NCBI GenBank assembly: GCA_963514005.1
Contig: OY740790.1
Span: 15,872,001-15,936,000, forward strand
Direction: 5' to 3'
Origin: Raja brachyura
Lineage: Eukaryota
DNA: 64,000 nucleotides
Under the pieces are notes generated by a model, which had not been told where the DNA came from, ran no database searches, and worked only from the letters and a program-made list of their open reading frames with translations. The position numbers were made by a program, and so were the translations under genes. This document shows, one piece after another, positions 5,291-61,050 of the stretch (positions are counted from its first letter, which is position 1; each line of letters opens with the position of its first letter).

Positions 5291-5841
5291 GTAGAAAACA
5301 AAATGATGTACTTCAGCTGGCTTGTCCCAAGTTTTCATTTGCCCTTCCAGAACAATTTAAACAAAATTGCATCTCCTCACACTTTGTCTACCCTCATTTT
5401 TGATCCGTAATAAATAAATCGTAAATGGTGCTGGAGTGAATAGTTATGAAAGGTTATTTTAATATGATGTCACAAAGTAAGATTTTACGCAACAGAAAGT
5501 GCTCCCATGTGTCTGTCTTAGCACAGACTCCACAGGGCAAGGAAATGTGGAAATGAATTGTTAGGTTTTGAAGACAATATTTCGGCTCCAGATTTCCCAC
5601 TTTGTTTGTAAAATTTGTAATAGACCAAATGGCTCAGTTTGAACAATAAAGCTGTGTTTTAAAATTTATTTCCCATGTTAGAAACATAGAAACATAGAAA
5701 ATAGGTGCAGGAGGTGGCCATTCGGCCCTTCAGCCAGCACCGCTATTCATTGTGATCATGGCTGATTGTCCCCAATCAATAACCCATACCTGACTTATCC
5801 CCATACCCCTTGATTCCACCTGCCCCTAGAACTCTCTCTTA

Positions 5842-7445
5842 CAGTGGCTTGCAAAAGTTTTCATACCCCTTGAACTTTTCCACATTTTGTCACGTTACAA
5901 CCACAAACGTAAATGTATTTTATTGGGATTTTATGTGATAGACCAACACAAAGTGGCACATAATTGTGAAGTGGAAGGAAAATTATACATGGTTTTCAGT
6001 TTTTTTTTCAAATAAAAAACTGAAAAGTGTGGCGTGCAAAAGTATTCAGCCCCCCTGAGTCAATACTTTGTAGAACCACCTTTCGCTGCAATTACAGCTG
6101 CAAGTCTTTTGGGATATGTCTCTACCAGCTTTGCACATCTAGAGACTGAAATTTTTGCCCATTCTTCTTTGCAAAATAGCTCAAGTTCAGTCAGATTGGA
6201 TGGAGAGCGTCTGTGAACAGCAATTTTCAAGTCTTACCAGAGATTCTCAATTGGATTTAGGTCTGGACTTTGACTGGGCCATTCTAACACGTGAATATGC
6301 TTTGATCTAAACCATTCCATTGTGCTCTGGCTTTATGTTTAGGGTCATTGTCCTGCTGGAAGGTGAACCTCCGCCCCAGTCTCAAGTCTTTTGCAGACTC
6401 TAACAGGTTTTCTTCCAAGATTGCCCTGTATTTGGCTCCATCCATCTTCCCATCAACTCTGACCAGCTTCCCTGTCCCTGCTGAAGAAAAGCATCCCCAC
6501 AGCATGATGCTGCCACCACCATGTTTCACAGTGGGGATGGTGTGTTCAGGGTGATGTGCAGTGTTAGTTTTCCGCCATACATAGCATTTTGCATTTAGGC
6601 CAAAAACTTCAATTTTGGTCTCATCAGACCAGAGCACCTTCCTCCACATGTTTGCTGTGTCCCCCACATGGCTTGTGGCAAACTGCAAACGGGACTTCTT
6701 GTTTCAACAATGGCTTTCTTCTTGCCACTCTTCCATAAAGGCCTGATTTGTGGAGTGCACGACTAATAGTTGTCCTGTGGACAGATTTTCCCACCTGAAC
6801 TGTAGATCTCTGCAGCTCCTCCAGAGTTACCATGGGCCTCTTGGCTGCTTCTCTGATCAATGCTCTCCTTGCCCGGCCTGTCAGTTTAGGTGGACGGCCA
6901 TGTCTTGGTAGGTTTGTAGTTGTGCCATACTCTTTCCATTTTTGGATGATGGATTGAACAGTGCTCCGTGAGATGTTCAAAGCTTGGGTATTTTTTTATA
7001 ACCTAGCCCTGCTTTAAACTTCTCCACAACTTTATCCCTGACCTGACTGGTGTGTTCCTTGGGCTTCATGATGCTGTTTGTTCACTAATGTTCTCTAACA
7101 AACCTCTGAGGCCTTCACAGAACAGCTGTATTTATACTGAGATTAGATTACACCCAAGTGGACTCTATTTAATAATTAGTTGACTTCTGAAGACAATTGG
7201 TTGCACTGGATTTTATTTAGGGGTATCAGAGTAAAGGGAGCTGAATACTTTTGCATGCCACACTTTTCAGTTTTTTACTTGTAAAAAAAATTTGAAAACC
7301 ATAATTTTCCTTCCACTTCACAATTATGCGCCACTTTGTGTTGGTCTATCACATAAAATCGCATTAAAATACATTTACGTTTGTGGTTGTAACGTGACAA
7401 AATGTGGAAAAGTTCAAGGGGTATGAAAGCTTTTGCAAGCCACTG
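5842..7445 (-). mobile_element. Tc1/mariner transposon (Passport-like, IR/DR type), full length, defective transposase ~7069-6060
   Basis: TA|CAGTGGCTTGCAAAAG...CTTTTGCAAGCCACTG|TA; ~210-bp TIRs with inner and outer direct repeats; motifs [31 protein letters not shown]; frameshifts and an in-frame stop; inserted in a CR1 3' fragment. Confidence 0.95.
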
Positions 7446-7504
7446 TAAATCCATCCAGTGATTTGGCCTCCACTGCCCTCTGTTGTCCTCTTGTCTCAAC
7501 TCTA

Positions 7505-13385: not shown

Positions 13386-14676
13386 AGATGTGTAAATATC
13401 TGAAAAAGTGTCTCGACCCAAAATTTTACCCATTCCTTCTCTCCAGAGATGCTGCCTGTCCCGCTGGGTTACTCCGGCTTTTTGTGTCTATCTTCTGTGT
13501 AAATGTCCTGCTGTGTTCATTAATTAATCCATGTGGGCACTCCGTTTTCCACAGCAAACTGCTTCGCACCCTGCTGAGACATATGTTATAGACTTACTTA
13601 GCAAAACTGTTATCACTGCATGTCCTCTCTCTCTGGTGACAGATTCCTCTGTTGGCAGCACATTGCTCCAGATTGTAGAGGGAAGTAGAGAGCTGTTCCA
13701 AACAGAACTCCCAGAATTTCCATGTGCATTTATCGGCAAGTTCAGAATTCTCACTTATGAATGTGGAAGCAGCAATCATGTTGGGCACTCATCACTGGTC
13801 TTTCCTAAACTAAGTTCCAGCAGAAGACTCCTCATGGAGTCCAGTGGTTGAGTTCCAGATTGTAGCAGGTACAGTCCTCCATCCATTTAACAGGATGGAA
13901 GTGCCTGCTGGGATAAAGGAGAGTTCCAGTCTTTTTTTCGGTTTAATTAAATGTTCTCTTTTTAATTTAGTCAGACTTCAAGCTCTTTTGCTTTAATTAT
14001 TCTGATGAATGGTTTGATATTTGTTAGTTTTTTACGTTTTCTGAATGAGACTGAGAAACATACAAATTCATAAAACGTTACAGTTGGCTAAGTCAAGGGA
14101 ATAAATTGATCTGGGTGCTTTGTTTTGTGTTCCAGCCAGGTTGTGTTCTCACCTAGTTGGATCAGTTACACGCACCGGAACACCAGCATGATGTTCTGTT
14201 GTATACTAAGGACGATTATCACTTTTGACTGTTCCATGGATCTAATCATTGATACTTTCAATACTCACCCACTTCTGTCTGGAGTCAACTTGTAACGATT
14301 GCTGTATGAGCTTTTCAAACATTAATCACGACACTGTGACACTCTTGACAGCAGTTTAAAGATGAGCCACCAAAGCATTTTTTGGGGATGCCTGAGTTTC
14401 TTTAAGTACATATTCACAGCCTTTTAGTTGTAATGTTTCCTCTCCTCGAAGTCCCATGACAATGTTCATAGGCATTTCAAATGAATGGCCTCTGCGACTG
14501 ACATTCCCTGAAGTTGAGATGAAATGCTTAATTAAGATCTGTCCCAGTTCAGGCTCAGCTGACGATAGACACAAAAGCTGGAGTAACTTAATGGTCAGAG
14601 AGCATCTCTGGAGAAAAGGAATAGGTACATTTCGGGTCTCGACCCAAAACGTCGCCTATTCCTTTTCTCCAGAGAT

Positions 14677-18482: not shown

Positions 18483-19849
18483 AAACTAGAATGCCAGAGG
18501 GTCTCAACTGTTAGCCTTCACAAATACTGCATGAGCTGCTGAGTTCTTCTGGTGTTCTATTTGTGGTCTAAATTCCAGAAACTGCATGTGTAGGAAGGAA
18601 CAACAGATGCTGGTTTAAACCTAAGATAGTACAAAATGCTGCAGTAACTCAGCGGGACAGGCAGCTTCTCTGGAGAGAAAGAATGAATGATGTTTCGGGT
18701 CGAGACCCTTCTTCAGACTTGTAAGGGGAAAGGGAAATGGGAGATAGTGAACTTTATAAAGGGAGTTGATCCATGGGGAATGTAAAGAGCAAACTACTAG
18801 CAGGAACTTTGAGATTTTGGATCAGCTGCATGATGTTCTGCTGTATACTAAGGACAGTTATTACTTTTGAAAGTTCCATGGATCTAATCATCGATACCGT
18901 CAACAATACTCACTCACTCCTGTCTTCTGTCAACTTGTACCGATTGCTATATGAGCTTTTCAGACAATAATCCCGACATGAAAGGTTTCAAAGGTCTTTT
19001 ATTGTCACGTGTGCCAATTATGGTACAGTGGTATGTGAATTACCATACAGCCATTCTAAAAAAGCAACAAGACACACAACTACATGAAAGTTAACATAAA
19101 CATCCACCTCAGCAGATTCCCACATTCCTCACTGTGATGGAAGGGAATAACATGTTGATCTTATTGACATTGTCTCCAGACTATCTTTATGTCAATTTTA
19201 TTGATAATAACATGATATATACTTATTCTGCAATAAATCTCATAACTAATTAGCTTTACCTATATTTACGTATGCATATGCATACCTCGTGTTGCCCTGT
19301 AATCATTCTTCTCGCTGCAAAATCCTAGAGTGGGTGAGAATGTACTTGCACTCCTTACCATACTGACTCCACCCAAGAGACATTGACATGCTCCAAAGCA
19401 ATCCCCACAGCTGGTAGTCTGTCACTGCATCCACTCTGTGATAAAGCATCACTAGGCTAATGAATTCCGTTAAAGCAAAATCTAGGACATATTGAAAGGG
19501 AAATGGTCCCTTCCCAAAGTTTTGAAGTAAAGTCATGATTTTTTGATCTGAATAAAAAAAGAGCAGAACAGATAACAGTTCGAGTCAATGTTATTGTCAT
19601 ATGCACAAGTACAATGAGAGACAGGTACAATGAAAGCAGCATCACAGGCATGAAGACTCAGACAAACTCATAAAAAGATGTAATACATATACATTAAATG
19701 CACACAAAAGTTCTAGAAAAAAGAAGCCTGCAAAAAAAAATGACATTAGTGCAAAGGCATAATTAAAAAATGCCACCCAGTTCAATCTCTTTAAATTCAA
19801 TTAATTGCATTTAAATGCTTGGGATACTGCAGATAGCAATTACTGGTAT

Positions 19850-24017: not shown

Positions 24018-24735
24018 GTAAGTGCAAAAATCTTTAGTATACATTAGTTCTACGCTGCAGCAAGGAACCAGACCTGAAGAGAACATGGATTGCGAAATTG
24101 GGACTGCTAGGCTGAATGTGACGACTCTGTAGAATTACAGATGGGTTTAAGTATATTGCAGACTGTTATGGAAATTAAAGACTCTGGCTGACTCTGACAG
24201 GCAAATACAAAGAGATTAGGTCACTATTATGATAATCACCAGACCATATACAATTCCTGTACTGATTCTGTATATGAGGTGTTTTGTGGGAACTTTGTCA
24301 AAAACATTTGCATCCTAAGAAAAGCCAGTGACACACAGTAGTCGTAGTAATTATTCTCCAATCACTTCTGAGCCTTAATCTGTGACACTGCTATAAAAAG
24401 CAGAATACAGCCACTTCGAGGCTACAGCCGTTTAAATCTTGTAAATTTAATTTAAGGTGATTTTGGACGTTATCTTCATTTTCCTCGCAGCGTTGAGCAT
24501 CTGAATTTGTGGCATCTATTCTCACCTATTATATAGTTGATCTGTTCAGAAAATCAATGGTTGTTCCAGGATCAATTTCCACAAATTGATCGGTGTTGCA
24601 ATGCCCCGGCAAAATTGGTCAGTTAGTTTGTCCAAAGAATTGCTATAAATTGTACAGCATGTCATTCAAGAATATATCGCTGAACCTCTTATTGAATGTG
24701 TAGCATTGGCATTTTATACATGTTTTGCATGTGTA

Positions 24736-46804: not shown

Positions 46805-47712
46805 AGACAATAGACAATAGGTGCAGGAGTAGGCCATTCGGCCCTTCGAGCCAGCACTTCCATTCACTGTGATTATGGCTGATCATCCCCAATCAGTACC
46901 CTGTCCCTGCCTTCTCCCCATATCTCCTGACTCAGCTATCTTTAAGAGCCCTATATAGCTCTTTCTTGAAATTATCCAGAGAACCGGCTTCCACTGCCCT
47001 CTGGGGCAGAGAATTCCACAGACTCACAATTCTCTGTGTGGAGTAGTGTCTCCTGGTCTCCGTTCTAAATGGCTTACCCCTGATTCTTAAACTGTGGCCC
47101 CTAGTTCTGGACTCCCCCAACATCGGGAACATGTTTCCTGCCTCTAGCATGTCCAAACTCTTGATAACCTTATATGTTTCTATAAGATCCCCCCTCATCC
47201 TTCTAAACTCCAGTGTATATAAGCCCAGCCGCTCCATTCTCTCGGCATATGACAGTCCCGCCATCTCGGGAATTAACTTTGTAAACCTACGCTGCCTCAA
47301 TAGCAAGAATGTCCTTCCTCAAATTAGGGGACCAAAACTGCACACAATTCTCCAGGTGTGGTCTCACGAGGACCCTGTATAACTGCAGAAGGACCTCTTT
47401 GCTCCTATAGTTAACTCCTCTTGTTATGAAGGCCAACACGCCTTTCACTTTCTTCACTGCCTGCAGTACCTGCATGCTTACTTTCATTGACTGATGAACA
47501 AGGACCCCCAGATCCCGTTGTACTTCCCCTTTTCTCAACTTGACACCATTTAGATAATAATCTGCCTTCCTGTTTTTGCTACCAAAGTGGATAACCTCAC
47601 ATTTATCCACATTAAACTGCATCTGCCAGGGATCTGCCCACTCACCCAACCTGTCCAAGTCACCCTGCATTCTCATAGCATTCTTCTCACAGTTCACACT
47701 GCCACCCAGCAT
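46805..47712 (-). mobile_element. CR1/HER1-like LINE 3' fragment
   Basis: WQMQFNVDKCEV, RDLGVLV, LVRPHLENCVQFWSP, WNSLP; (CTATTGT)n tail. Confidence 0.9.
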
Positions 47713-47828
47713 CTGCAGTTCCTTCCTGCACGACCTAGTAGGACAGATAAGTGTGGAACAATTAACCATGTCAGAGTTGAATCCAGCCATGCATATCCAG
47801 TTATTAATTAGTTATTTATCTCTTCCAG

Positions 47829-47941
47829 TGCTCCCCACCATACAACATGGACCTCAGATATTCAGCACCATTGAGGGAGTTCCAGTTCGACTACCTTGCA
47901 AAGTACATGGTGTTCCCAAGCCTTCCGTTGTCTGGTCTAAG
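47829..47941 (+). CDS. HMCN1: HMCN1 exon J (113 nt, phase 1-0)
   Basis: tccag|TGCTCCCC...TCTAAG|gtatgt; VLPTIQHGPQIFSTIEGVPVRLPCKVHGVPKPSVVWSK. Confidence 0.94.
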
Positions 47942-48029
47942 GTATGTATCCTGGGTTGCACACATTCATCGGAATCAAAAAAAGCAAAAGGATCGATTTT
48001 CTGCAAATGATTTGTATCTTCCTTTACAG

Positions 48030-48189
48030 AATGGCGAACTCATCAGCCAGCATTTGAGGAACGTCAGTATTGAATCCGATGGCAGTTTACTAATATCTTC
48101 ACCAAGTGGCAAAGAGACTGGGGAATTTGTGTGCACAGCCACAAACGCCGCAGGTTACACCTCACGCAAAGTTCAGCTGACAGTTTATG
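48030..48189 (+). CDS. HMCN1: HMCN1 exon K (160 nt, phase 0-1), after an 88-nt intron
   Basis: tacag|AATGGCGAA...GTTTATG|gtacga; NGELISQHLRNVSIESDGSLLISSPSGKETGEFVCTATNAAGYTSRKVQLTVY. Confidence 0.94.
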
Positions 48190-48324
48190 GTACGAGTACA
48201 TATTTAATCTCATTGTAGAATCTAATTTATTGGTTAGAGATTGCAGGTCCTGGCTTGTGGAATGTGTTCTTTAGTGTTGACAGGAGTACAGCAATTACTA
48301 AACGGAATCATTAATCATAATTTG

Positions 48325-49240
48325 AGTGAGGAAACAAGGAACTGTAGACGCTGGTTAAAACACAAAAGGAGTCAATGTGTTGGAGTAACCGAGTAGGTCA
48401 GAGAGCATCTTTGGAGAACGGTGACATTTCGGGTCAAGACACTTCTTCAGACAGATTGTTGGGTGGGGGGGGGGGGGGGGGATGCTGGAAAAGGGAGAGG
48501 TTGGAGAGTGTGTGGCAACATAGGCAAATGGGGGGGGGGGGGGGGGGTTGATAGGCAGATGGCCGTCGCAAAGGCTAGAGATAAGAAAGGAAGGTGTATG
48601 ACAAGTTTGAAGAATTACAGTTTGTAATTGTTACCAGAGGGAGGAAAGTAGAAGGAAGGGGATGGGGGTGGACAGAGGAAAGAAATAGGTGAGATTCCAG
48701 GTGGGGCACAAGGGTGGGAAGGGAAAGGGAGGAGGTGGGGCAGTTTGGTAGGGGGGGGGGGGGGAGTGGGGGGGTTGGGGTTTGGGTTTGTAAAAGGTTA
48801 CCTAACATTGGAGAATTCAATGTTCCTATTGTTGGGCTGGAAGCTGAGGTGCTGTTCTTCCAGTTTGCGTGTGGCCTCTGTCTGTCAATGGTGGAAACCC
48901 AGGACAGAAAGGTCAGCTCAGGTGCAGAAGGGCAGCCCCTATGCAGCTGACAATGTAGAACTCGTGGATTTTATTAGTTTCACCACTAATTTTCACCCTG
49001 CTCTCAAATTCACCTAGCCTACTTCTGACACCTCTCTCCCCTTCCTTAATTTCTCTGTCTCCATTACAGGAGACAGACTATTGACGGACGTCTATTATAA
49101 ACCTAGCAACTCCTCCAGTTACCTGGACTACATTTCATCCTACTCAGCCAAGATGCAAAAATGCTATTCCCTACTCACAATTCGACCATCTCCACAGCAT
49201 TGCTCCCAAAACCAGACTTTCCATGTTAGGGCATCTTTCA
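48325..49240. mobile_element. Penelope-like element with internal inversion (3' end on minus 48325-48920; RT fragment on plus ~48950-49240)
   Basis: Minus: EATRKLEEQHL..NIEFSN; plus: FTTNFHPALKFT, LPFLNFSVSI, TDVYYKPS..SYLDY, CKNAIPYSQF. Confidence 0.82.
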
Positions 49241-49450
49241 TTTGTAAACACAGATATGGGACCCAAAATGGCTCACAATGCTCTGAATGGGGGGGGTGAG
49301 AAGCTAGAAAAGGGGAGGCAGGATAAAGCATGGCAGATAATAGGGTGGCGCAGTTGGGGTTGTCAAGTTTCATTCTGAGAATTCGTTATTTTGTTTGCAA
49401 GTCAGGGCAATGTTTGATTATTTTAATTCTCAAGCATATTCTACTTCCAG

Positions 49451-49622
49451 TTAAACCAAGAATTGGTACTAAGTCGGGAGGAGGATCTGCAGGGAGAGGT
49501 CCAATGGAATTATCAGTGATAGAAGGAGAAGATATGACGTTGCCTTGTGAAGTCCATAGCTTTCCACCTCCCATTATCCGCTGGGCGAAAAATATGCAGC
49601 TTATCTCTCCTTTCTCACCAAG
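49451..49622 (+). CDS. HMCN1: HMCN1 exon L (172 nt, phase 1-2)
   Basis: tccag|TTAAACCA...CCAAG|gtaact; VKPRIGTKSGGGSAGRGPMELSVIEGEDMTLPCEVHSFPPPIIRWAKNMQLISPFSPR. Confidence 0.94.
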
Positions 49623-50022
49623 GTAACTCAAGATTAAACATGGATCCGCCTGAGAGCATTTCTCTCATTTCACTATTACCTGTAAGTGTGCTATGCACAG
49701 CTTTTGGATAATACTAGGCACATAAATTGTGAGGGGGCATACTGTGCAAATAAAGGTTGGGGTTATATTTCACTTGAGTAAATGTGGTTATTATTGTCAT
49801 CACTGATTTGTAACCTTTAAGTTATTTACAGATTCAGATAAAGTTTAGTTTCCATTGCTCGTTGTTTTTCTTTGTTCTTCATAATGCTTTAATTGCACAA
49901 TAGAATTACTGCGTTCACATTTGCAACCTATGTATGTACCTCCTCTCAATATATGCCAACATAAGTTGAATAGCTTATGTTTTCGCAACATGGAAGATGA
50001 ACCGATCTAAACATGAGTTCTT

Positions 50023-50158
50023 CTTCTTCTTTCGTGTGGCGTGCACAGCATACAGTCGTAGGACAACTTGTTCTATTTGACCTTCTGTTTGAGCACGTCG
50101 AGTTGATTGCATTAGTCGAAACAGGGCGGACCTCATGAAGGTTGCAACCTTCCACCCC
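50023..50158 (-). mobile_element. Short (136 bp) non-autonomous retroposon with (GAA)n tail and 10-11 bp TSD, probably Ingi/Vingi- or RTE-related
   Basis: Direct repeat ATGAGTTCTT at 50013-50022 and 50159-50168. The minus strand starts GGGGTGG and ends ...GCCACACGAAAGAAGAAG. No tRNA A/B boxes. Family assignment is inference. Confidence 0.8.
50105..50158 (-). ncRNA. Candidate minimal HDV-like (CPEB3-type) self-cleaving ribozyme
   Basis: GGGGUGG-AA-GGUUGCA-ACC-UUCAUGA-GGU-CCGCCCU-GU-UUCGA-CUAA-UGCAAUC: P1 7 bp with G1.U wobble, P2 7 bp, P3 3 bp, 7-nt L3, J4/2 CUAA, in HDV nested double-pseudoknot order. Confidence 0.78.
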
Positions 50159-50818
50159 ATGAGTTCTTAATATTTTAAACTATTTCAAATTTAAAATGAA
50201 GTAACGTGGAGCTTTTGCAAATTTTTTGTAAACATTGATCACAAGCAACAAGCTGCGCTTGATTTCTCTGATAGTTTAATTTCCTTGTTGTTCAGATGCT
50301 TACACTTTTTTTTTTATTTTCTAATTTCTTCCTGACTGAAATTATAAGATTCTATAATTGTTTTCATATGGATAGCAAATCCTTCAGCTCACCAGATTAT
50401 TGTGATTGGAGTATATCACAGGTTTCACCCCTATTTTTCCCCATGTTTGGTTGTCTTTCTTGTCCTTTCGTTTTCAATTGTTCAGTAGGATGATGATGGA
50501 AATGTTGTCCCCTCTACTTTTCCTGGGCACACTGAATGATGTGTAATTATTTTCCAATATGTTCTTGTTTACTTCTTGCATTGGATTACCATTTAAAAAA
50601 TAAAGAAACAAAAGAGAAGTCTAGTAAAACTCAAAAAATTGAAAAGTGGAGTCATTACCAACCAAACTGGGACAGTAGTTAGGATCTTAAATTGTTGAAC
50701 TTAATTTTGGTACCTGTCCCCTGTCTATATTGAAATATTTAAAAATATTTGTTCTACACATAAATGTTGATTTTAGCATGAACGATGATTTTTAATTGGA
50801 ATATATTTTGTATTCTAG

Positions 50819-50946
50819 ACACACTCAACTTTCCTCTGGATCACTAAAGATTATTGCGACCAGACTGTCAGATACTGGAATGTACTTTTGTGTTGCTACA
50901 AATATTGCTGGGAACATTACACAATATATTAGACTGAATGTCCATG
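50819..50946 (+). CDS. HMCN1: HMCN1 exon M (128 nt, phase 2-1)
   Basis: tctag|ACACACT...GTCCATG|gtatgt; HTQLSSGSLKIIATRLSDTGMYFCVATNIAGNITQYIRLNVH. Confidence 0.93.
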
Positions 50947-51534
50947 GTATGTATCCATACTGATGCAGACCAGTAATAACACCAGTTTGTTCTTTCGATG
51001 TTAGAAGTCTGAAACTACGGGATAATTCTCTCAGTGAACTACAAATCATGATTTAAGCCACACCATGAGACAATAGACAATAGGTGCAGGAGTAGGTCAT
51101 TCAGCCCTTCGAGCCAGCACCGCCATTCAATGTGATCATGAGCTTTAATATTTTGTTATTGTTCGCAGAGGAGTGGCATAAATTTATGCTTTTCTATAAA
51201 ACACATGGTTCAATCAGCATTGCATAAGTCGCACACACACACACAGAAACTAAAATCTTGCTCAGACCGTTCTTTATTTGACCTGAGAATCAATTTATTC
51301 AAAATTTTACACGCCCATCTGTTTGTGCCCTGTTATAGTGTTTGGAAGTTTGCACTCCACTCTCATTTCTATAATGAATGAATCGTTTTAAACATCTTGA
51401 AATGAATTTTTGAATTTAATTATAATCTAGATAGATAATTATATCTATTTTATTTGCATTAAGAATGGCTTCTGGGTGCAGAATAGAATTGCACATCCAA
51501 TTTTAAATTTTAGATAAGATAGGGGGTTAATATG

Positions 51535-52720
51535 ATGCCATAGATTGAGGATTGGCTAATGATTCGAGAAAAGAGAATGGGAATAAATAGTTTGAGAGCA
51601 AAGACCAGTGGGCTGCTGTGGATACAGCTGTTCACAATCTATATTAATCATTTGAATAAGGGAATTGAGTGTGATATACTCAAGTTTGCTGATGATACAA
51701 AATTAAATGACAATATGGATTATGAAGAGAATGTAGCGAGACATCATGGTGATTTTTACAAGGATGTTGCCAGGACTAGAGCGACGGTTCTTAACCGTTT
51801 CGGCAATAGTACGTGCATACGTGAACAAAATACTGTATGTGGTATATATCTTTGCTAGATTCCTAAACATGGGCTCAACAAATTGATATGTTATTTGTGT
51901 CCCCTTCATGACCCCTGGCAAAGCCCCAAATGACCGCCATAGGGGGTCATGACCGCCAGAACCACTGGACTAGAGGGTGTGAGCTTTCGGAAGAGGTTGA
52001 GAGGCTGGGTCTCTATTCCATGTAGCGCAGGAGGATGAGGGGAGATCTTATAGAGGTATATAAAATCATGAGAGGAAAAGATCGGGTCGATGCAGAGTCT
52101 TTTGCCCAGAGTAGGGGAATCGAGTTTAAGTGAAATAGGTTTAAGGTGAAGGGGAAAAGATTTAATAGGAATCCGATGGGTAACTTTTTCACACAAAGGG
52201 TGGTGGGTGTATGGAACAAGCTGCCAGAGGAGGTAGTTGAGGTTGGGACTATCTCATTGTTTAAGAAACAGTTAGACAGATACATGGATAGGACAGGTTT
52301 GGAGGGATATGGACCAAGCGCAGGCAAGTGGGACTGGTGTAACTGGGACATTGTTGGCTGGTTTGGGCGAGTTGGGCCGAAGGGCCTGTTTCCACACTGT
52401 TTCACTCTATGACTATATATAGACAGGCTAAGTGAATGGTGGATGGAATTTACAGAGGAAATTGTGAGGCATCCATTTTGATAGAAAAACACCAAAAGAT
52501 GAAGTTTTTTTGCAATGACGAAAGCTTTAAAAGTGTTGGTGTTCAGAAGGACTTTGGGTGGCCTTGTTCACTTGTGAAAGTTAGCATGTAGCTACAGCAA
52601 ATAATTCAAGAGACAAACACTACGTTGACCTTTATTGCAGGAGGATTTGAGTAGGCATATTTTGCTCGAATTATATTGAAGTCCTGGTGAAACCACATCT
52701 GGAATATTGTACTCAATTTA
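51535..52720 (+). mobile_element. Nested CR1 fragments (younger copy ~51753-52415 inside an older one)
   Basis: KFADDTKL in the older part; FFTQRVVGVWNKLP and 3' UTR in the younger part; the older frame resumes at ~52418. Confidence 0.8.
51782..51967. mobile_element. hAT (Charlie-like) MITE
   Basis: 8-bp TSD GACTAGAG (51774-51781, 51968-51975); termini CGACGGTTCT...AGAACCACTG; interrupts a CR1. Confidence 0.75.
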
Positions 52721-55032
52721 ATACATTATCTTGGCTCAATATGTTTCTTTAAGCCTTTTTGAGAGTTTAAAATTTTCTCTGAATTACTTTTGGCACTCAT
52801 AAGTAAATCTGATGCATAATAAGAAAAGTGTGCCCGGTACCAGTGGGTAAAACATCAGACAACAAACATTTATTAACTTGGGAAATACAGTGCTGAATAA
52901 TGCCAAATAACCAGTCTGTCTTTAACTGCACAACTAAGTTAAATTCAAAATTGTCGGAACTCACTCAGGGTCAATCAGCGTCAGCATCACATTCAGTATC
53001 AGCTTCCAGCCTTTCCTAGAAGTAATTATTTTGCTTTCCAGACAACTGGAAGCTAACAATTAGTTAGCATTAGCTAACTTAATCAGCAGAAAGAGTGGCT
53101 CAAGCTACTACAATGAATAGTGGTGCAGACCAATGTGTAACGACCAATTGCACTAAATACTGACCCTATTATGGGTGTACATATAAGCAAAGTTACATTA
53201 TTTGAGGTTTCATTGTTCATGAGAGACACAATTTTGCAATAAACTTAGCACAATCTGTAAATTAAAAGCAAAATTAATTAAAATTTAAAAGCAATAAAAT
53301 TATGAAGCATACAACAAACATGAGACATTTTCAGAAAAGAATAAGATACATATACTGTGACAATCCCACTTCTTTCCACAAACATATTCAACTGTCCTAT
53401 GCTACTTCAAATCATTACGTAACAACCATCCCTGGTTATAATCTGTAGTTGCAAAAAATTCTTACTATTTATTTTCTTCGTGACCAAAACGAACCCTGTA
53501 ATATGTTTTATCTTTTATTTAACAATACCTTCCTCTATTGCAATTGCACTAAAATTGTAAAGTACAGAAATTAGCCTGGATTAATAGAGCCCTCTACCCT
53601 GGCTGGTTATTGGAAAAAGCCTATTCTTAGAGTTTCACCATTTGTCCTACGGTTCTCTAAATTAATCTCTGAAACATTGCAGTGATTGTACCCATAGGGT
53701 AGAAAGGTCATAGCTAGGGTTAAGGAAGGTCAGCCCTTTGAAAATAAATGATTGTCAAGAACAGTGCGTACCATTTAAATTTGTAGCACGCCAGAGATGT
53801 GACTTACATGGTTTAAGATGAACGGTATAAAAATGCCAATAAATACCAGAATTATGATTATAGTCACCCACATCTCATTTTTTTAGAAAAGAAGCTTTAC
53901 TATATTCTACGACAGAATATTTCCTAATGCTTGTCTTCAAGTATTCACCATCCTTTTGTGGTAAGATTGCTAACAGAATTGTTAGAGTATTGTTAACAGA
54001 AATATCAGTTGCAGCTTTAGAGATGTATTTTTGGGACCAGCTTCTAAAGCGATTTGAAATTAAGTTTTGGAGCAAGGATATAAATAGAACATTTTCAAGT
54101 GATGAAATAACATAGAAATAATTGAAAGTAGCTTACTTTTTGCAGAAGTCATTATATAGTACGTACAGGATCTTGAGACCCCATATTTGTTGGATAAGAT
54201 ATATTTTTAAAGTAGTCCAGATGTTCAAATCCTTTTCAGGTTCTGTGGACCAAATTCCGGAGTTTGCAGGCAGCAACAAAGGAACAGTGTTCACATTCAC
54301 TGTGCTGACAGAGAAGTTGTGGTTTCACAAAAGAGGAGTTTAAGAAAAAGAATAGCTTTTAACCATAAGAATCTCCACTGAGATGTGTAGGCTATGCTTT
54401 CTTGTGTGGCGCTTCAGGCACCAATTTGCCTCCAGTTTTGGTTATTAGTGGCGAGTGGCTCTTTGGAGAATTAACACTACTTCAGACTGTTCAATGCAGA
54501 AGCATTTGACAGAGACAAATTGGTGACGCCAATTCTCATGCAAAATATTTTGACAGTAGCATCTCTAAAATAGGCACAATAATAAACTGCAATAATAAAC
54601 CGTGTGTTAATCCAAATAAATTTTGGTGAATTGCATGTACAATGGATGCATGAAAAGCATCCATTACCCTCCAACAAATGAGTTGTCTCATCCCTTCTTA
54701 TGCCTGCACCAGGCTGTTGCTGCTGGCACCAGGAACACATAGACATCTCCTGTAAAGCAGAAGAACCTCTGCATGATGCCTTACAAAGTGTTTGGGTCAT
54801 TTGTCAGTTAGTGGTGTGCAGATATTGTAAGATGTCAGTGTCAAAATTGGAATGGAATAAGATATGAGATGAAATAGAACCAAGGATGCGCGATGTCTGT
54901 AGCCAAATAATGTGTGAGGCTAATGGCATGAATTTGCTGTTTTCACTGACCTTAATCATACTTGTACAGTTGCAACACTGCATGTGACCTTGGAGCTTGA
55001 CATCTGGGGATGGTCCATGGTGATCTCTACTC

Positions 55033-55344
55033 TTTAGATTTTAGACTTTAGAGATGCAACGTGGAAACAGGCCCTCGTCCCACCGAGTCCGAACCGACCA
55101 GCGATAGCCCCGTACACTAGCACTATCCTACACACTAGGGACAATCCACAATGTACAGAAGCCAATTAACTTACAAACCTGTACATCTTTGGAGTGTGAG
55201 AGGAAACTGGAGTGCCCGGAGAAAACCCACACTGTCACAGGCAGAACATACAAACTCCATACAGACAGCACCCGTAGTCAGGATCGAACCCGGGTCTCTG
55301 GTGCTGTAAGACTGAAACTCTAGTGTTGCACCACTGTGCTGCCC
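55033..55344 (-). mobile_element. tRNA-derived SINE (HE1/V-SINE-like), full length
   Basis: Minus strand GGGCAGCACAGTGGTGCAACAC (A box)...GGTTCGATCC (B box), conserved body, (CTAAA)n-type tail. Confidence 0.85.
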
Positions 55345-56384
55345 TAAACACCTTTTAGCTCTGCCTGTAGAATTATATGTTGAAGCCCAGAGAGTTGGCT
55401 AATAGCAAATAGTCACTTTTTTTCCTGTTACTGCAAATATGATGTTTTTTTTGTGTTTATTAGCCATGTATTCCACCATGATGCTCTTACTTTGATTCGA
55501 GTGCCAAAGAATCTGTAAAGGAACAATTCTCTCAAATAACAAATCCCAGTTTAATTAAATTTGTGCACATGTTGGAAGTGCAGTCCAGTCAAGCCAGCAA
55601 TAACAGCCAGTGCCTATTGCCTCACATTATACCCATCACAAAACACAAATAATTACATTTTGTCAGTAACAGTTATTCTAAACAAACCAGGGTCTCAGTC
55701 TAAGAAAAATGTTTTTCAAGGTATACTGTTTATAGTAGCAATGGCTCTAAAAAAAGTGAGCGATCTCAAAGAAGATGTTACCAGGTAAGTAGAGAAATAT
55801 ACCGATGATTTAGTGATGGGGACAAAATGTAATTGTTAGTTTATGCAAAGCTGATGGTGGAGAGTATTTCCACATAGGTAGGTAGAGGCTGGTCTGTGAT
55901 GGTGTTGGTGGGTGGGGAGAGGGTGGAGATTGGTGGTGGTTATTGGTGGATTTGCTTCCGATATGAAGCTAAATGTCTCTTCCTGCGAGGTAATTTTGAG
56001 TTGCATTCATGGTATCAATACATTGACAAAAAGATTGCTAATGACACAATGTTACTGCAACAGTGCAGTCCTGCGTACTTAAAATAAGAACTTCTTTGCA
56101 GAAACCAGCACTTTAAACGATGCTACTTGCTTTTACCTTGAGTGAATTAGGCAAAAATGGTGCAACAGAGTAATGTTGATGAATAATGTTGTTAATGGAA
56201 GTGAACATGGGGAGAATTGGATATCCGTAATTTATATCGCAGGTTCCTGATGTGGGCAATTACCTGCAAGCAAATCAAATAGTACAAACTTAATTTTGTC
56301 TAATATGGTTATGATTAGAACTTGAAGTGAAATGCTGAGAGATGGCGATTCTATCTGAAAATTGTACTGTCTGCTGTTTTTTAG

Positions 56385-56657
56385 TTCCTCCAAGAATTCG
56401 GTCTGGACCCCGTATTATGAAAGTCCAATCTGGTCACAGGATTGACATCCCCTGCAATGCACAGGGTGTGCCACCCCCCACCATAACCTGGTATAAAGGA
56501 GGGAGAAGCATTCACTTTAATAAGGAGCCGTACAGTGTTAATGTAGAAGGAACGCTGACTATTAAGCGGGTCCAACTCAGCGATGATGGACCTTATACGT
56601 GTGTCGCCAAGAATGTGGCTGGTCAACATGAAGTAAATACAACTCTACAGGTTCACG
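56385..56657 (+). CDS. HMCN1: HMCN1 exon N (273 nt, phase 1-1, one whole Ig domain)
   Basis: tttag|TTCCTCCA...GTTCACG|gtacgt; VPPRIRSGPRIMKVQSGHRIDIPCNAQGVPPPTITWYK...DDGPYTCVAKNVAGQHEVNTTLQVH. Confidence 0.95.
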
Positions 56658-56667
56658 GTACGTACTT

Positions 56668-56992
56668 AGAAACATAGAAAAGTAGGTGCAGAAATAGGCC
56701 ATTCGGCCCTTCGAGCCAGCACCGCCATTCAATATGATCATGGCTAATAATCATCTAAAATCAGTACCCAGTTCCTGCTTTTTCCACATATCCCTTGATT
56801 CCTTTAGCCCTAAGAGCTAAATCTAACTCTCTCTTGAAAACATCCAGTGAATTGGCCTCCACTGCCTACTGTGGCAGATAATTCCACAGATTTGCAACTC
56901 TCTGGGTGAAGAGGTTTTTCCTCATCTCAGTCCTAAATGGCCTACCCCTTATTCTTAAACTGTGACCCCTGGTTCTGGACTCCCCCAACATG
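56668..56992 (-). mobile_element. CR1/HER1 3' end inserted about 10 nt downstream of the exon N donor
   Basis: Same 3' UTR and AGAAACATAG tail. Confidence 0.85.
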
Positions 56993-57231
56993 GGTAAAAA
57001 CATTTATGCATCAGAATGGAGAGAGACAATATTGAATGTGAAAGATAATTTAGTAAATATGCCTGGAAGGCTTGATGAATGAGTTGAAGGGAAATGAGGA
57101 TTGAGAAAAAGCTTTTTGGCAGGGCTTAGTTGTTTTTGCTTTGATGCTAAGATTCTGAGGATATACGCAATCAATTGAGGGCAGAGATGGGCATGTGACC
57201 AGAAACATGGTCTAAAGATGGATCAACACTT

Positions 57232-57558
57232 AACACTCAAGGATGCATTCCACAAGCCAGGACCTGCAATCTCCAGCCAATTAATTAGATTGTACAGAGA
57301 GATTAAACGTGTACTCGCACCATAAACTGTCATCTGAAACATGCGTGATGTATAATCTGCGGCGTTTGTGGCTGTACACAAATTCCCCAGTCTCTCTGCC
57401 ATTTGGTAAAGATATTAGTAAACTCCCATTGGATTCTATGCTGACGTTCCTCAATTGCTGGCTAATGAGTTTGCCATTCTGTAAAAGAAGATACAAATCA
57501 TTTGCAGAAAACAGATCCTTTTGCTTTTATTGATTCCGATGAATATGCGCAGCACAGG
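57232..57558 (-). pseudogene. Inverted, frameshifted duplicate of HMCN1 exon K with flanking intron sequence
   Basis: Reverse complement aligns by eye to ~47950-48278. The exon part has 17 substitutions and a 2-nt deletion in 160 nt; AG and GT are retained. ORF 57281..57496(-) reads NGKLISQQLRNVSIESNGSLLISLPNGRETGEFV before the frameshift. Confidence 0.93.
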
Positions 57559-60500
57559 GCCATTATTTGAGATCACATTTCAAGGTTTCAAGGTCAGTTT
57601 ATTGTCACATGTACCAATTAAGGTACAGTGAAATTTGAGTTACCATCCAGCCAAACTAAAAGCAACAAGACACACAACCACATAAAAGTTAACATAAACA
57701 TCCATCAATGGATTCCTTCATTCCTCACTGTGATGGAAGGAAATAAATTTCAATCTCTGCATTGTAATCATTAATGGAGTGAAATTAACGTTTCACTTAA
57801 AAACCATATTTATAAAAAATTCTATAATTTATAGGAGTATGTTTTAATCAGGTACAAAGGAGTGAAGGGGAGCAAGGCAGGATCAGCGAGATCAGAACCA
57901 TTTAGTTCAGGTGTGTGGAGGTGGGAACAAACACCAAGGATGACAGGTTAAAGGACAGGTTTTCACTGAGCAAGGTGAAATCCTTGACTCCCAGCAGCAT
58001 TAGCTAAGGGTGAACTTCAACCCTCACGTTAAGTTCCGCTTCAATGTCCAGGCCTCTACTGCGGAGAAGATATTTGCTCAAGTCATGTTAATTGACCTTT
58101 ATATTGCGCTGAAGTTGACTGCGCATGCCCAATGGCCTGCAGGCATGGAACTCACATTCAGAAAAGACCCAGATCAATTTTCTGTCCTTCGGGGGAATTT
58201 CAATAATTTGTTTTTATATACCTCATAAAACTTTGCGCTATATGATAAAATTCCCAGGCCCCTATGTTTTCAATAAAAATGCCACCAATGCAGTTAAAAA
58301 CAAATGTGGTCCATTTGTGGTAATATTTATGTTGGCATTGCTTTCTGTTTAAAGGGAACCCTGAGTAATATAATTTATTTTAACTTGCTAATCCTATTAA
58401 TGATATAAATGCTGGCTAAACCTATAGAAGCTTCAATCGACTAGAACTAGACCAGCAAACCAGTGGATACCAATAATTCACACAAAAGGAACTCGACACC
58501 TCAGTGGATAGTATTCAACTCACTCACTCATGAATAATGGAACATTTTGCTGTGTATATCTCCAACAGTTTGACAACAATATCTTTATTTTAATGGTATT
58601 GGGAATAGCTCCCCTGTCCTCCCTTGTAGACTCCAACTCCACCCCAACATTTCCTCAGCCCTCACCCCCCCCCCTCCCCCCCCACTACTAAACATATCAT
58701 GGACCTTGTCACCAGTGCCACCACCTTCGTATCATCCCTCAAGCAAACATAATCCTCATCTCACTCACCACCCACTTTCCCCAATCCAATTCCCCAACCT
58801 CTTGTAGTCTTGCATGGTTTCTTGCAAGGCTTTCTCCATTCTCCCACTCTTTTCTGCCCCCAACCACTCACTCAAATCTTTTTCCATGATCTCCAATTTC
58901 CACAATGCCAGGAGATCAGAGCCAAAAATACTTTTGTGCATATTTCTGTAGTCTAGGGCCTCCTACATGCAAAAGATTACAGGCATTGAAGAAATGCTAC
59001 ACTAGAATTTTTACTCTTCAGAACGAGGCTATTTATTTTGGCTGTCAATGTTCTAACATCTAATATGTGGTTATGTAGAAACTTCATGTGAAAACAGATT
59101 CTGGTTACAACCTTTTTCATCTTCAATTTCTGCTCTATAGTTAGCAATTCCCTTCTCACTAATTAGATTTTCTCTATTCACTGGATAATTCAGTGAACCC
59201 ATTGCCCTTGAGATGATTGAATGAATCAGAGTAAAACCAACCCAGGTTATGTCCACTGAGAAAGGGATTAGAGAAGAGAGATCAGATGATGATGGAATGA
59301 TGAACTAAAATGGGCATAGATTTAGATGGTGAAGCACCATCAAGAAAATTTCCAATAAGGAAGCAGGGTGGGGCAAGGATGTTGGTGATGATGGGTTGAA
59401 AATGAAGGGATAAATATCTGAGGATATGAAACTATGTACAATGAAGGAGTGGAGCTGGTGCCCCCAAGTTGAATGCTTTCTGCATGTGAGTTAGCCAGAT
59501 ACAGGAGAACCAGCTTTGGTGCTGGATATTTCAGTGTTGTGGGGCATTGACTCTTGGATCGTGCTGTGGCTGAGACCTGATACAGGTCCACAATCGTCGA
59601 GCTTTCAATGTATTTTGTGGGGCTGGCAGGAAGGAAAGTAAGAAAAAGCTTACTAAGTAAGTTCATTCATGAAAGATAAATTGGTTTTCATGGAGTCATG
59701 CAGAGATACAGTACATAAACAGGCACTTTGGCCCATCCAGTCCATACTGACCATCAACGATCCATTTTACATTAATCCTACATTAATTTATTTTTAATTT
59801 TCCCTACATTCTTTAGATTTTAGATTTCAGTGTGGAAACACTCCCTTTGGCCCACTGAATCTATGCCGGCCAGTGATCACCCCATGCATTAACACTATCC
59901 TACACACTATGGATAATTTACAGAAGGCAATTAACCAACAAACCTGTACTTCTTTGGAGTGTGGGAGGAAACCCACGCAGTCACAGGGAAAACGTATAGG
60001 CAGCACCTGTAGTCAGGTTCGATCCCAGGTCTCTGGCACTGTAATGCAACAACTCTACATTTGTGCCCCCTAAGTATATTATTTTATACTTCCCCCAGAT
60101 ATTACCATTCACCTACACACTAGGGGTGATTTACAGTGCGGAATTAATCTATCAAACCTCCGTCTTTGGATGCTGTCATTGGATGTTTTCACTTGTTGAG
60201 TGCAGTTCTTCCCTATGCAAAATGCAATTGCAATCACAATGCAAAAGTAACTGGAGATGATGTTTTGGTGACATTGAGGTCTTCTCCATTGCATTGCTTA
60301 AGACTTGACTGCTGTTATGGGGCTTATACTAGACTACTGGACACTTTGGATCTGAAATCCTATGTACTGAATCAAGTCGGCTATTTTGGAGATGATTAGC
60401 AGGGAGAAATGAAGCAGGATTATCTTCAGATTCCTGATTATTCTAAATGTTGATGGTGATATTGCAAGACCAGTAAAGACTCAAACGAACGATGGCTAAA

Positions 60501-60588
60501 CCAGTTATGAGTCTTTCATGCTCTGCTTTTAGCCTTATGGACATGATGAATTGAGTGGACTGTTGATATTATTTCCATTGTATTGTAG

Positions 60589-60684
60589 AACCTCCTACTG
60601 TTGAAGACCCAGGACCTCCATATAATACTCCTTTCCAAGAGAGAATGGCAAACCAACGTATTGCATTCCCGTGCCCAGCCAAAG
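60589..60684 (+). CDS. HMCN1: HMCN1 exon O (96 nt, phase 1-1)
   Basis: tgtag|AACCTCCT...GCCAAAG|gtatga; EPPTVEDPGPPYNTPFQERMANQRIAFPCPAK. Confidence 0.93.
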
Positions 60685-61050
60685 GTATGAATGGGAAATG
60701 CATTTATACTACATTTTATAATCCATTGAAGTATGTATATTGCATTCTACGTAAAGATGTTTTTTGTTTAACTGGCATTACAGCATTACCTTCAAACACC
60801 CAGCTTATTATTGGAGGTAGGAAAATAATGGCTAGGTTATTGAAATTTGGTGACGTTATTCTAAAGCTGTAAAGAAATGTTGGCTAGATCACACACAGAC
60901 CACCTGGTCACTGTATGGGAAGCGTGCAGAGGAGATTTATAAATTGATAACAAGAATGTGATTGAATTAAGGATAAAGAGATAGATGTCCCTCTTTTACA
61001 AAAGGAAGCCTGAGAATTTACCTATCAAAGATGTTTAAAATGATATTATG

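Follow-up and report, generated by a model that had tools for sequence, protein, structure and literature searches.

Hemicentin-1 (HMCN1) of Raja brachyura carries, in the intron between its exons N and O, an inverted copy of its own exon K together with intron sequence from both sides of it. The copy is real and old and most likely a neutral scar rather than a splicing switch, and we assign a probability of about 0.78 to its being a local DNA-repair duplication that arose in a single event and has decayed neutrally since. As it stands, the copy is of little significance; it is a clean and datable example of break repair placing copies of exons within the gene they come from, and it warns against taking an in-frame loop in a gene of Ig repeats as evidence of design. 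All positions given without further label are those of the window, the whole stretch of 64,000 nucleotides that was analysed.

The host gene and the inverted copy

The host gene of exon K and its copy is hemicentin-1. A motif scan over 464 kb around the window revealed a vWA exon (129 kb upstream; Pfam score 25.5 bits, slightly below the cut-off of 27), a long array of Ig I-set domains, six TSP1 exons and EGF exons, all of them in plus orientation, and the Hemicentin-1 protein maps to 102 loci that are 97% collinear, with exon K representing residues 1031-1071, so that both the domains and the collinear orthology by which the gene was identified were found. This protein, named Hemicentin-1, is the best match for exon K in a HMMER search; a word-based search of proteins with exon N as query did not return a hemicentin. 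The bounds and phases of the exons were taken from the reading of the sequence, and the features needed here are the following:

47829..47941, plus strand: exon J (phase 1-0), encoding the first half of an Ig I-set domain (sequence; tblastn with bird hemicentin-1 residues 978-1038)
47942..48029, plus strand: intron J-K, 88 nt, likely about 100 nt shorter in this lineage than it was
47950..48278, plus strand: donor arm as it survives, with 80 nt of intron, exon K and 89 nt of intron K-L
48030..48189, plus strand: exon K (160 nt, phase 0-1), encoding the second half of the Ig domain (Pfam I-set; 75.6% to bird hemicentin-1 1031-1071)
49451..49622, plus strand: exon L, 172 nt, phase 1-2 (sequence, bird hemicentin-1 mapping)
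50819..50946, plus strand: exon M, 128 nt, phase 2-1 (sequence, bird hemicentin-1 mapping)
56385..56657, plus strand: exon N, 273 nt, one complete Ig domain, phase 1-1 (sequence, Pfam, bird hemicentin-1 mapping)
57232..57558, minus strand: the donor arm as copied in inverted orientation into intron N-O, with a 2-nt deletion that shifts the frame, also in organisms B, C, D and E
60589..60684, plus strand: exon O, phase 1-1 (sequence, bird hemicentin-1 mapping)

The sequence-only reading from which we started had described 57232-57558 as an antisense copy of exon K, and a self-BLAST of the window confirmed it as the reverse complement of 47950-48278 (57558-57232 on the minus strand, 329 columns, 87.8% identity, E 1e-114). 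By local alignment the exon part differs from exon K by 17 substitutions in 158 aligned nt and a 2-nt deletion and the two intron parts by 8/80 and 13/89, with no difference in divergence between exon and intron parts (p 0.73). The minus strand of the copy retains the AG, the pyrimidine tract and the GT, with A changed to G at donor position +3. Donor and copy lie 8,954 bp apart, or about 6.7 kb after subtraction of 2.26 kb of repeats.

A search of the 2.7-Gb genome returned two matches from two candidates, the exon K locus and the copy itself, in agreement with the earlier description of the copy as no transposable element. That it was made at the DNA level rather than as a processed retrocopy had also been proposed, and this holds in so far as intron is present on both sides and neither a poly-A tail nor a flanking direct repeat or target-site duplication is visible at the copy junctions. 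A processed retrocopy or class 1 templated insertion is thus ruled out, and the intron content excludes a spliced mRNA as template and is compatible with an unspliced RNA. A tandem array that would account for the match was not found in 47000-61000.

The two other long inverted pairs that were tested within the window, 10591-11610/14676-15679 and 38805-39244/51968-52417, turned out to be high-copy repeats and not local duplications. The first is a 1-kb AT-rich non-coding repeat in intron A-B with thousands of candidates in the genome at about 90%, for which a strong duplex is predicted. A further pair in opposite orientation, 5839-7448 and 24734-26129, is 94.5% alike, has terminal inverted repeats of about 215 bp and is presumably a DNA transposon of the Tc1/mariner type.

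Presence in relatives and history of the copy

Parts of 56300-57600 are contained in 21 sequencing runs, four of which, representing organisms B, C, D and E and as many studies, were aligned to 57013-58500 at 90% likeness. Contigs crossing a copy junction were present in all four runs:

57145-57604: contig of B over the copy junction
57161-57380: contig of C over the copy junction
57136-57280 and 57378-57606: contigs of D in the copy region
57013-57281 and 57378-57605: contigs of E in the copy region

As these junction contigs occur in all four organisms, the copy is real and predates the splits from B to E; the presence in relatives that the sequence-only reading had suggested looking for was therefore found in 4/4 cases. 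C, D and E each have a second contig with exon-K-type letters, which we read as the donor locus, and two contig ORFs (P0137 and P0142) are 83% like exon K. All four relatives carry the copy, and no pre-insertion site was seen among them. Copy contigs leave 57381-57575 uncovered in run X9 (organism C, 74% read), and at 90% likeness they leave 57282-57360 almost uncovered in X13 (organism E); these coverage holes prove nothing, and the 90% filter may have dropped a more diverged piece, which would lower the divergence estimate for E. We found nothing in favour of an assembly artefact, which is refuted by the junction-spanning contigs from four other organisms and four studies and is at odds with the 12% divergence between the arms, and we give it practically no credence.

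Judging from the relatives' donor contigs, the original duplication was probably longer and reached to about 57856. The donor contigs of D (X10) and E (X13) extend past the homology end of this genome, to 57567 and 57583, respectively, and the donor contig of C (X9) matches to 57583 and again over 57806-57856 (51 letters), giving a joint from 57583 to 57806 with 30 letters between its two sides that resemble 57757-57805. The outer parts can accordingly be laid out as follows:

57559..57583, minus strand: continuation of the original copy, without a remaining match in intron J-K of this genome
57578..57756, minus strand: fragment of a high-copy repeat, about 180 bp, ending in a short repeated tail (2218 candidates; 39 other matches at 89-92%)
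57757..57856, minus strand: outer part of the original copy, matched by the X9 contig, its end 57856 lying by inference at about +4 of intron J-K

The repeat at 57578-57756, by its appearance presumably the 3' end of a LINE or SINE, can be placed inside the copy because the X9 exon-K contig skips it, and would therefore have entered after the copy arose. A LINE 3' transduction as source of the copy was rejected, since the repeat sits inside the original copy, is skipped by the relative's donor contig and has no counterpart in intron J-K. For 57757-58200 no second copy exists in this genome. The copied piece would originally have measured about 440 bp. In this lineage intron J-K seems to have shortened by about 100 nt, to 88 nt from about 190 nt, for which a 4-nt microhomology may have been responsible, and the copy appears to preserve sequence since deleted from its donor. 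The repeat insertion and the donor-intron loss would both interrupt the duplex that the arms could form.

Near 57856 the copy reads TGTACCTG on the minus strand and intron J-K of this genome reads GTA-TGTAT-CCTG; their comparison places the copy end at about intron +4, a boundary for which one contig and 4 matching nt are the basis. The donor sequence runs on with AGTGTTGA at the 3' junction, and the identical 8 nt follow the copy after an offset of 7 nt. This match fits microhomology and, as no pre-insertion site was seen, such breakpoint marks are suggestive only.

Decay of the two arms

To follow the changes between the arms we used 40 of the 155 table rows, which cover 23 of the 38 arm-to-arm substitutions. 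A change was assigned to the copy when the relatives' copy keeps the exon-K letter and to the exon-K arm when the copy letter stands in the donor contigs of D and E. Ten of the 23 traced changes arose in the copy, four in the exon-K arm and nine are older, and none of the 14 lineage-specific changes, dated after the split from D and/or E, is compensated on the opposite arm. The 2-nt deletion of the copy is common to B and absent in D and E, and its reading frame is broken in both A (this genome) and B. At site 57343, where C and D differ and A and B agree with exon K (the donor letter of C and D not being visible), a change towards pairing is possible. Transitions between the arms are G-U-compatible and incompatible in a ratio of 12:12, and six of the eight traced copy transitions keep a G-U pair (p 0.14).

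Copy-containing contigs do not differ significantly from flank contigs in their differences from this genome in any of the four comparisons, which have low power: B shows 4/460 versus 11/985 (Fisher p 0.79), C 10/220 versus 26/922 (p 0.20), D 14/338 versus 49/829 (p 0.26) and E 12/228 versus 62/781 (p 0.20). The point estimates for the copy are lower than for the flank in B, D and E and higher in C, with the copy about 30% less diverged in D and E, again not significantly. These figures would still be compatible with a constraint of about 30%, given that some flank is contained in the copy-containing contigs, that one branch is common to the four comparisons and that their power is low. As far as the data from four relatives reach, the copy decays at a neutral rate, an outcome that the sequence-only reading itself had named as contradicting its regulatory idea, and they favour the neutral debris that it had offered as its alternative.

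Pairing between the arms and the regulatory idea

The proposed ability of the copy to pair with exon K is borne out on paper, as the predicted duplex of the arms reaches -491 kcal/mol compared to -107 +/- 8 kcal/mol for 20 shuffles. This raises the possibility of a selected cis-antisense element that pairs with exon K and promotes a circle of exons L, M and N, skipping from K to O or A-to-I editing. Besides the predicted energy, such an element would be in line with the placement of the arms 1.17 kb before the acceptor of L and 0.57 kb after the donor of N, with the persistence of the copy in five organisms and with exon K being the only one among the 102 mapped exon loci to have such a copy. 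Reverse-complementary matches are described to promote back-splicing and skipping (bioRxiv 10.1101/2021.02.28.433292), and stable duplexes to be enriched in editing sites and outside circles (PMC8052449). Against it stand the complete lack of compensation among the 14 traced changes together with the even wobble ratio and the flank-like divergence, as well as the splitting of the copy by a repeat and the probable loss of part of its partner in the donor intron. Three transposon pairs over the same exons are predicted to form even stronger duplexes (-701, -699 and -551 kcal/mol), and HMCN1 contains 490 inverted pairs of at least 150 nt, 25 of them within 10 kb. The short introns beside K, transcribed 9 kb ahead of the copy, would usually be committed first, which also counts against a regulator. 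We therefore regard a selected element as highly improbable, and the claim of a built-in cis-antisense function is not supported.

The geometry of the loop does not help to distinguish either. Exons L, M and N do add up to 573 nt in phase 1-1, as had been claimed. An in-frame block is nevertheless expected by chance in this gene, as phase 1 applies to 11 of the 15 introns between exons A and P (with the phases beside exon H taken from one side) and as an in-frame block would be enclosed over about 93% of the intron length lying 1-18 kb downstream of K (L to P); any such block trivially gives a stop-free circle, and the in-frame loop thus fails as a signal. Skipping from K to O needs the donor of K, which would be hidden in the duplex, and therefore conflicts with a masking of K, which in turn would lead to the loss of 160 or 733 nt, both out of frame. 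Side effects of pairing would be low-level at most and not kept by selection. The most plausible one would be some editing, because spliced exon K could still pair with the copy until intron N-O is removed. If the duplex did recode or circularise hemicentin-1, a regulatory arm would have been born of a repair accident.

The retained AG, pyrimidine tract and GT could also let the copy serve as an exon of an antisense transcript, for which a copy in human ACSBG2 provides a precedent (PMC2671141). The copy shows no sign of constraint and its frame is broken in A and B, which makes such a use exceedingly improbable.

Local duplications and the origin of the copy

The frequency of local single-copy duplications was estimated from a sample of 1.66 Mb, consisting of this region and six blocks of 200 kb. 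Within 9 kb, 17 mutual-only pairs were found compared to 0.3 expected from the rate of distant pairs, one of them being the copy and three being tandem. Genome-wide searches with seven of the 16 others identified five as local only and two as dispersed repeats, which makes the number 16 an upper bound. Two of the five local-only duplications are inverted (244 and 482 bp apart), three of the five lie in HMCN1, and in one the sole full-length partner is local with part of the query being an old repeat; among the verified inverted cases of the sample, the copy of exon K lies farthest from its donor. As a random donor of 330-440 bp in the gene would cover a whole exon in 3.6-6.3% of cases, a backwards exon copy should be uncommon per gene and expected many times per genome.

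Several of the sampled pairs deserve mention on their own. Positions 14177-14333 and 18819-18978 form a direct duplication (160 bp at 84%, 4.5 kb apart, two copies genome-wide). An HMCN1 intron contains a young inverted pair of 120 bp at 95% with two copies genome-wide (G000:C10:15865894-15866376; L022:3894-4013 and its partner 244 bp on), which would form a tight hairpin in the pre-mRNA. Further local-only cases are a direct duplication at 5 kb (G000:C10:15771358 and 15776426; L012:9358-9468) and an inverted one at 482 bp (G000:C6:30114267 and 30114908; L094:4267-4426). A direct pair of 919 bp at 97% lies 5.4 kb apart at G000:C6:30099595-30106767 (L092:9595 to L093:6767), and L155:4393-4703 (G000:C20) belongs to a repeat dispersed over many contigs, inside which units of about 110-200 bp stand in tandem. 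The sample holds roughly 5 local single-copy duplications per Mb, well above the rates published per Mb of transposon DNA, which are 0.62 in human and 0.19 in zebrafish (PMC2671141); as the methods differ, the excess is only a lead.

A repair duplication is favoured because there are only two copies genome-wide, no poly-A tail or target-site duplication and local duplications are common. The broken end of a DNA break in intron N-O would have used the nearby exon K region as template, and strand annealing or a template switch would have placed about 440 bp backwards and 9 kb downstream. Later a high-copy repeat would have inserted into the copy and the donor intron J-K would have lost about 100 nt, and both arms would then have drifted as neutral sequence, able to pair in the pre-mRNA as many transposon pairs in the gene could. 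Some observations do not sit easily with this: the 8.95 kb between donor and copy exceed the 5-kb cut-off of the published proximal class, the missing pre-insertion site leaves the breakpoint marks suggestive only, the somewhat lower divergence in D and E would make weak constraint conceivable, and site 57343 might be a pairing-directed change, as might the transitions that keep G-U pairs. The outer end about 4 nt from a splice donor is also not predicted by a random DNA break.

This last point would be explained if a piece of unspliced HMCN1 RNA, beginning with the 5' end of intron J-K, had been reverse-transcribed and patched into a break of the same gene, with an equally neutral outcome. 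The fragment would correspond to a first-step splicing intermediate, since the X9 contig match ends at 57856, at about intron +4, and patches of RNA origin lacking a poly-A tail and target-site duplication have been proposed as class 2 insertions (PMC5110952). Against this, one contig and 4 matching nt give the boundary, a coincidence at the level of a few per cent is nothing unusual when spotted in hindsight, DNA duplications within short range are frequent in this genome, and the published RNA patches derive from distant sites (PMC5110952); we therefore consider an RNA template unlikely. Even more doubtful is the combined idea of a fossil splicing intermediate, cut at the donor of exon J and reverse-transcribed into its own gene, that now yields editing of exon K or a circle of two Ig domains. 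If an RNA-templated origin were true, the copy would be germline evidence that nascent splicing intermediates can patch their own locus, and a preference of local exon-containing duplications in this genome for splice donors as their starting points would amount to a germline path by which nascent RNA returns to its own locus.

Comparison with known systems

The open-access texts that were searched contained nothing relevant on this locus or on circular RNA of HMCN1. Among known cases the copy of exon K resembles class 2 templated insertions in containing introns and in lacking a poly-A tail and target-site duplication, whereas those come from distant sources and are polymorphic and the copy is local and shared across species (PMC5110952). 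With functional reverse-complementary matches it has in common a long inverted match around an exon block and a strong predicted duplex, and it differs from them in that one arm is an exon with splice sites and that no compensation is seen and its divergence does not differ significantly from that of the flank (bioRxiv 10.1101/2021.02.28.433292; PMC8052449). Compensatory substitutions, by which conserved complementary regions are recognised, amount to 0/14.

Editing-complementary sequences of ADAR targets such as the partner of the GRIA2 Q/R site are intronic, complementary to a coding exon, short-range and strongly conserved. The copy of exon K is likewise intronic and complementary to an exon, but it lies 9 kb off and is decaying.

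The closest relation is to the repair-mediated duplications described by Pace et al. 2009 (PMC2671141) from mammals, chicken and zebrafish, with 824 proximal cases in human that measure up to 619 bp, have no poly-A and mostly show neutral divergence. As in exon 7 of human ACSBG2, a whole exon with its intron flanks stands backwards in an intron of its own gene, present once more on its chromosome as a piece of a few hundred bases, without poly-A and with neutral-like divergence (PMC2671141); the ACSBG2 copy is in addition reported as an exon of an antisense transcript. One other copy in the genome for an insert of at least 50 bp, the absence of poly-A/T and a divergence that is neutral, at low power, all agree with that class, and the distance of 8,954 bp does not, lying 9 kb apart here compared to a cut-off of 5 kb there (PMC2671141). 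The copy of exon K thus works like the proximal repair-mediated duplications without being a strict member of them.
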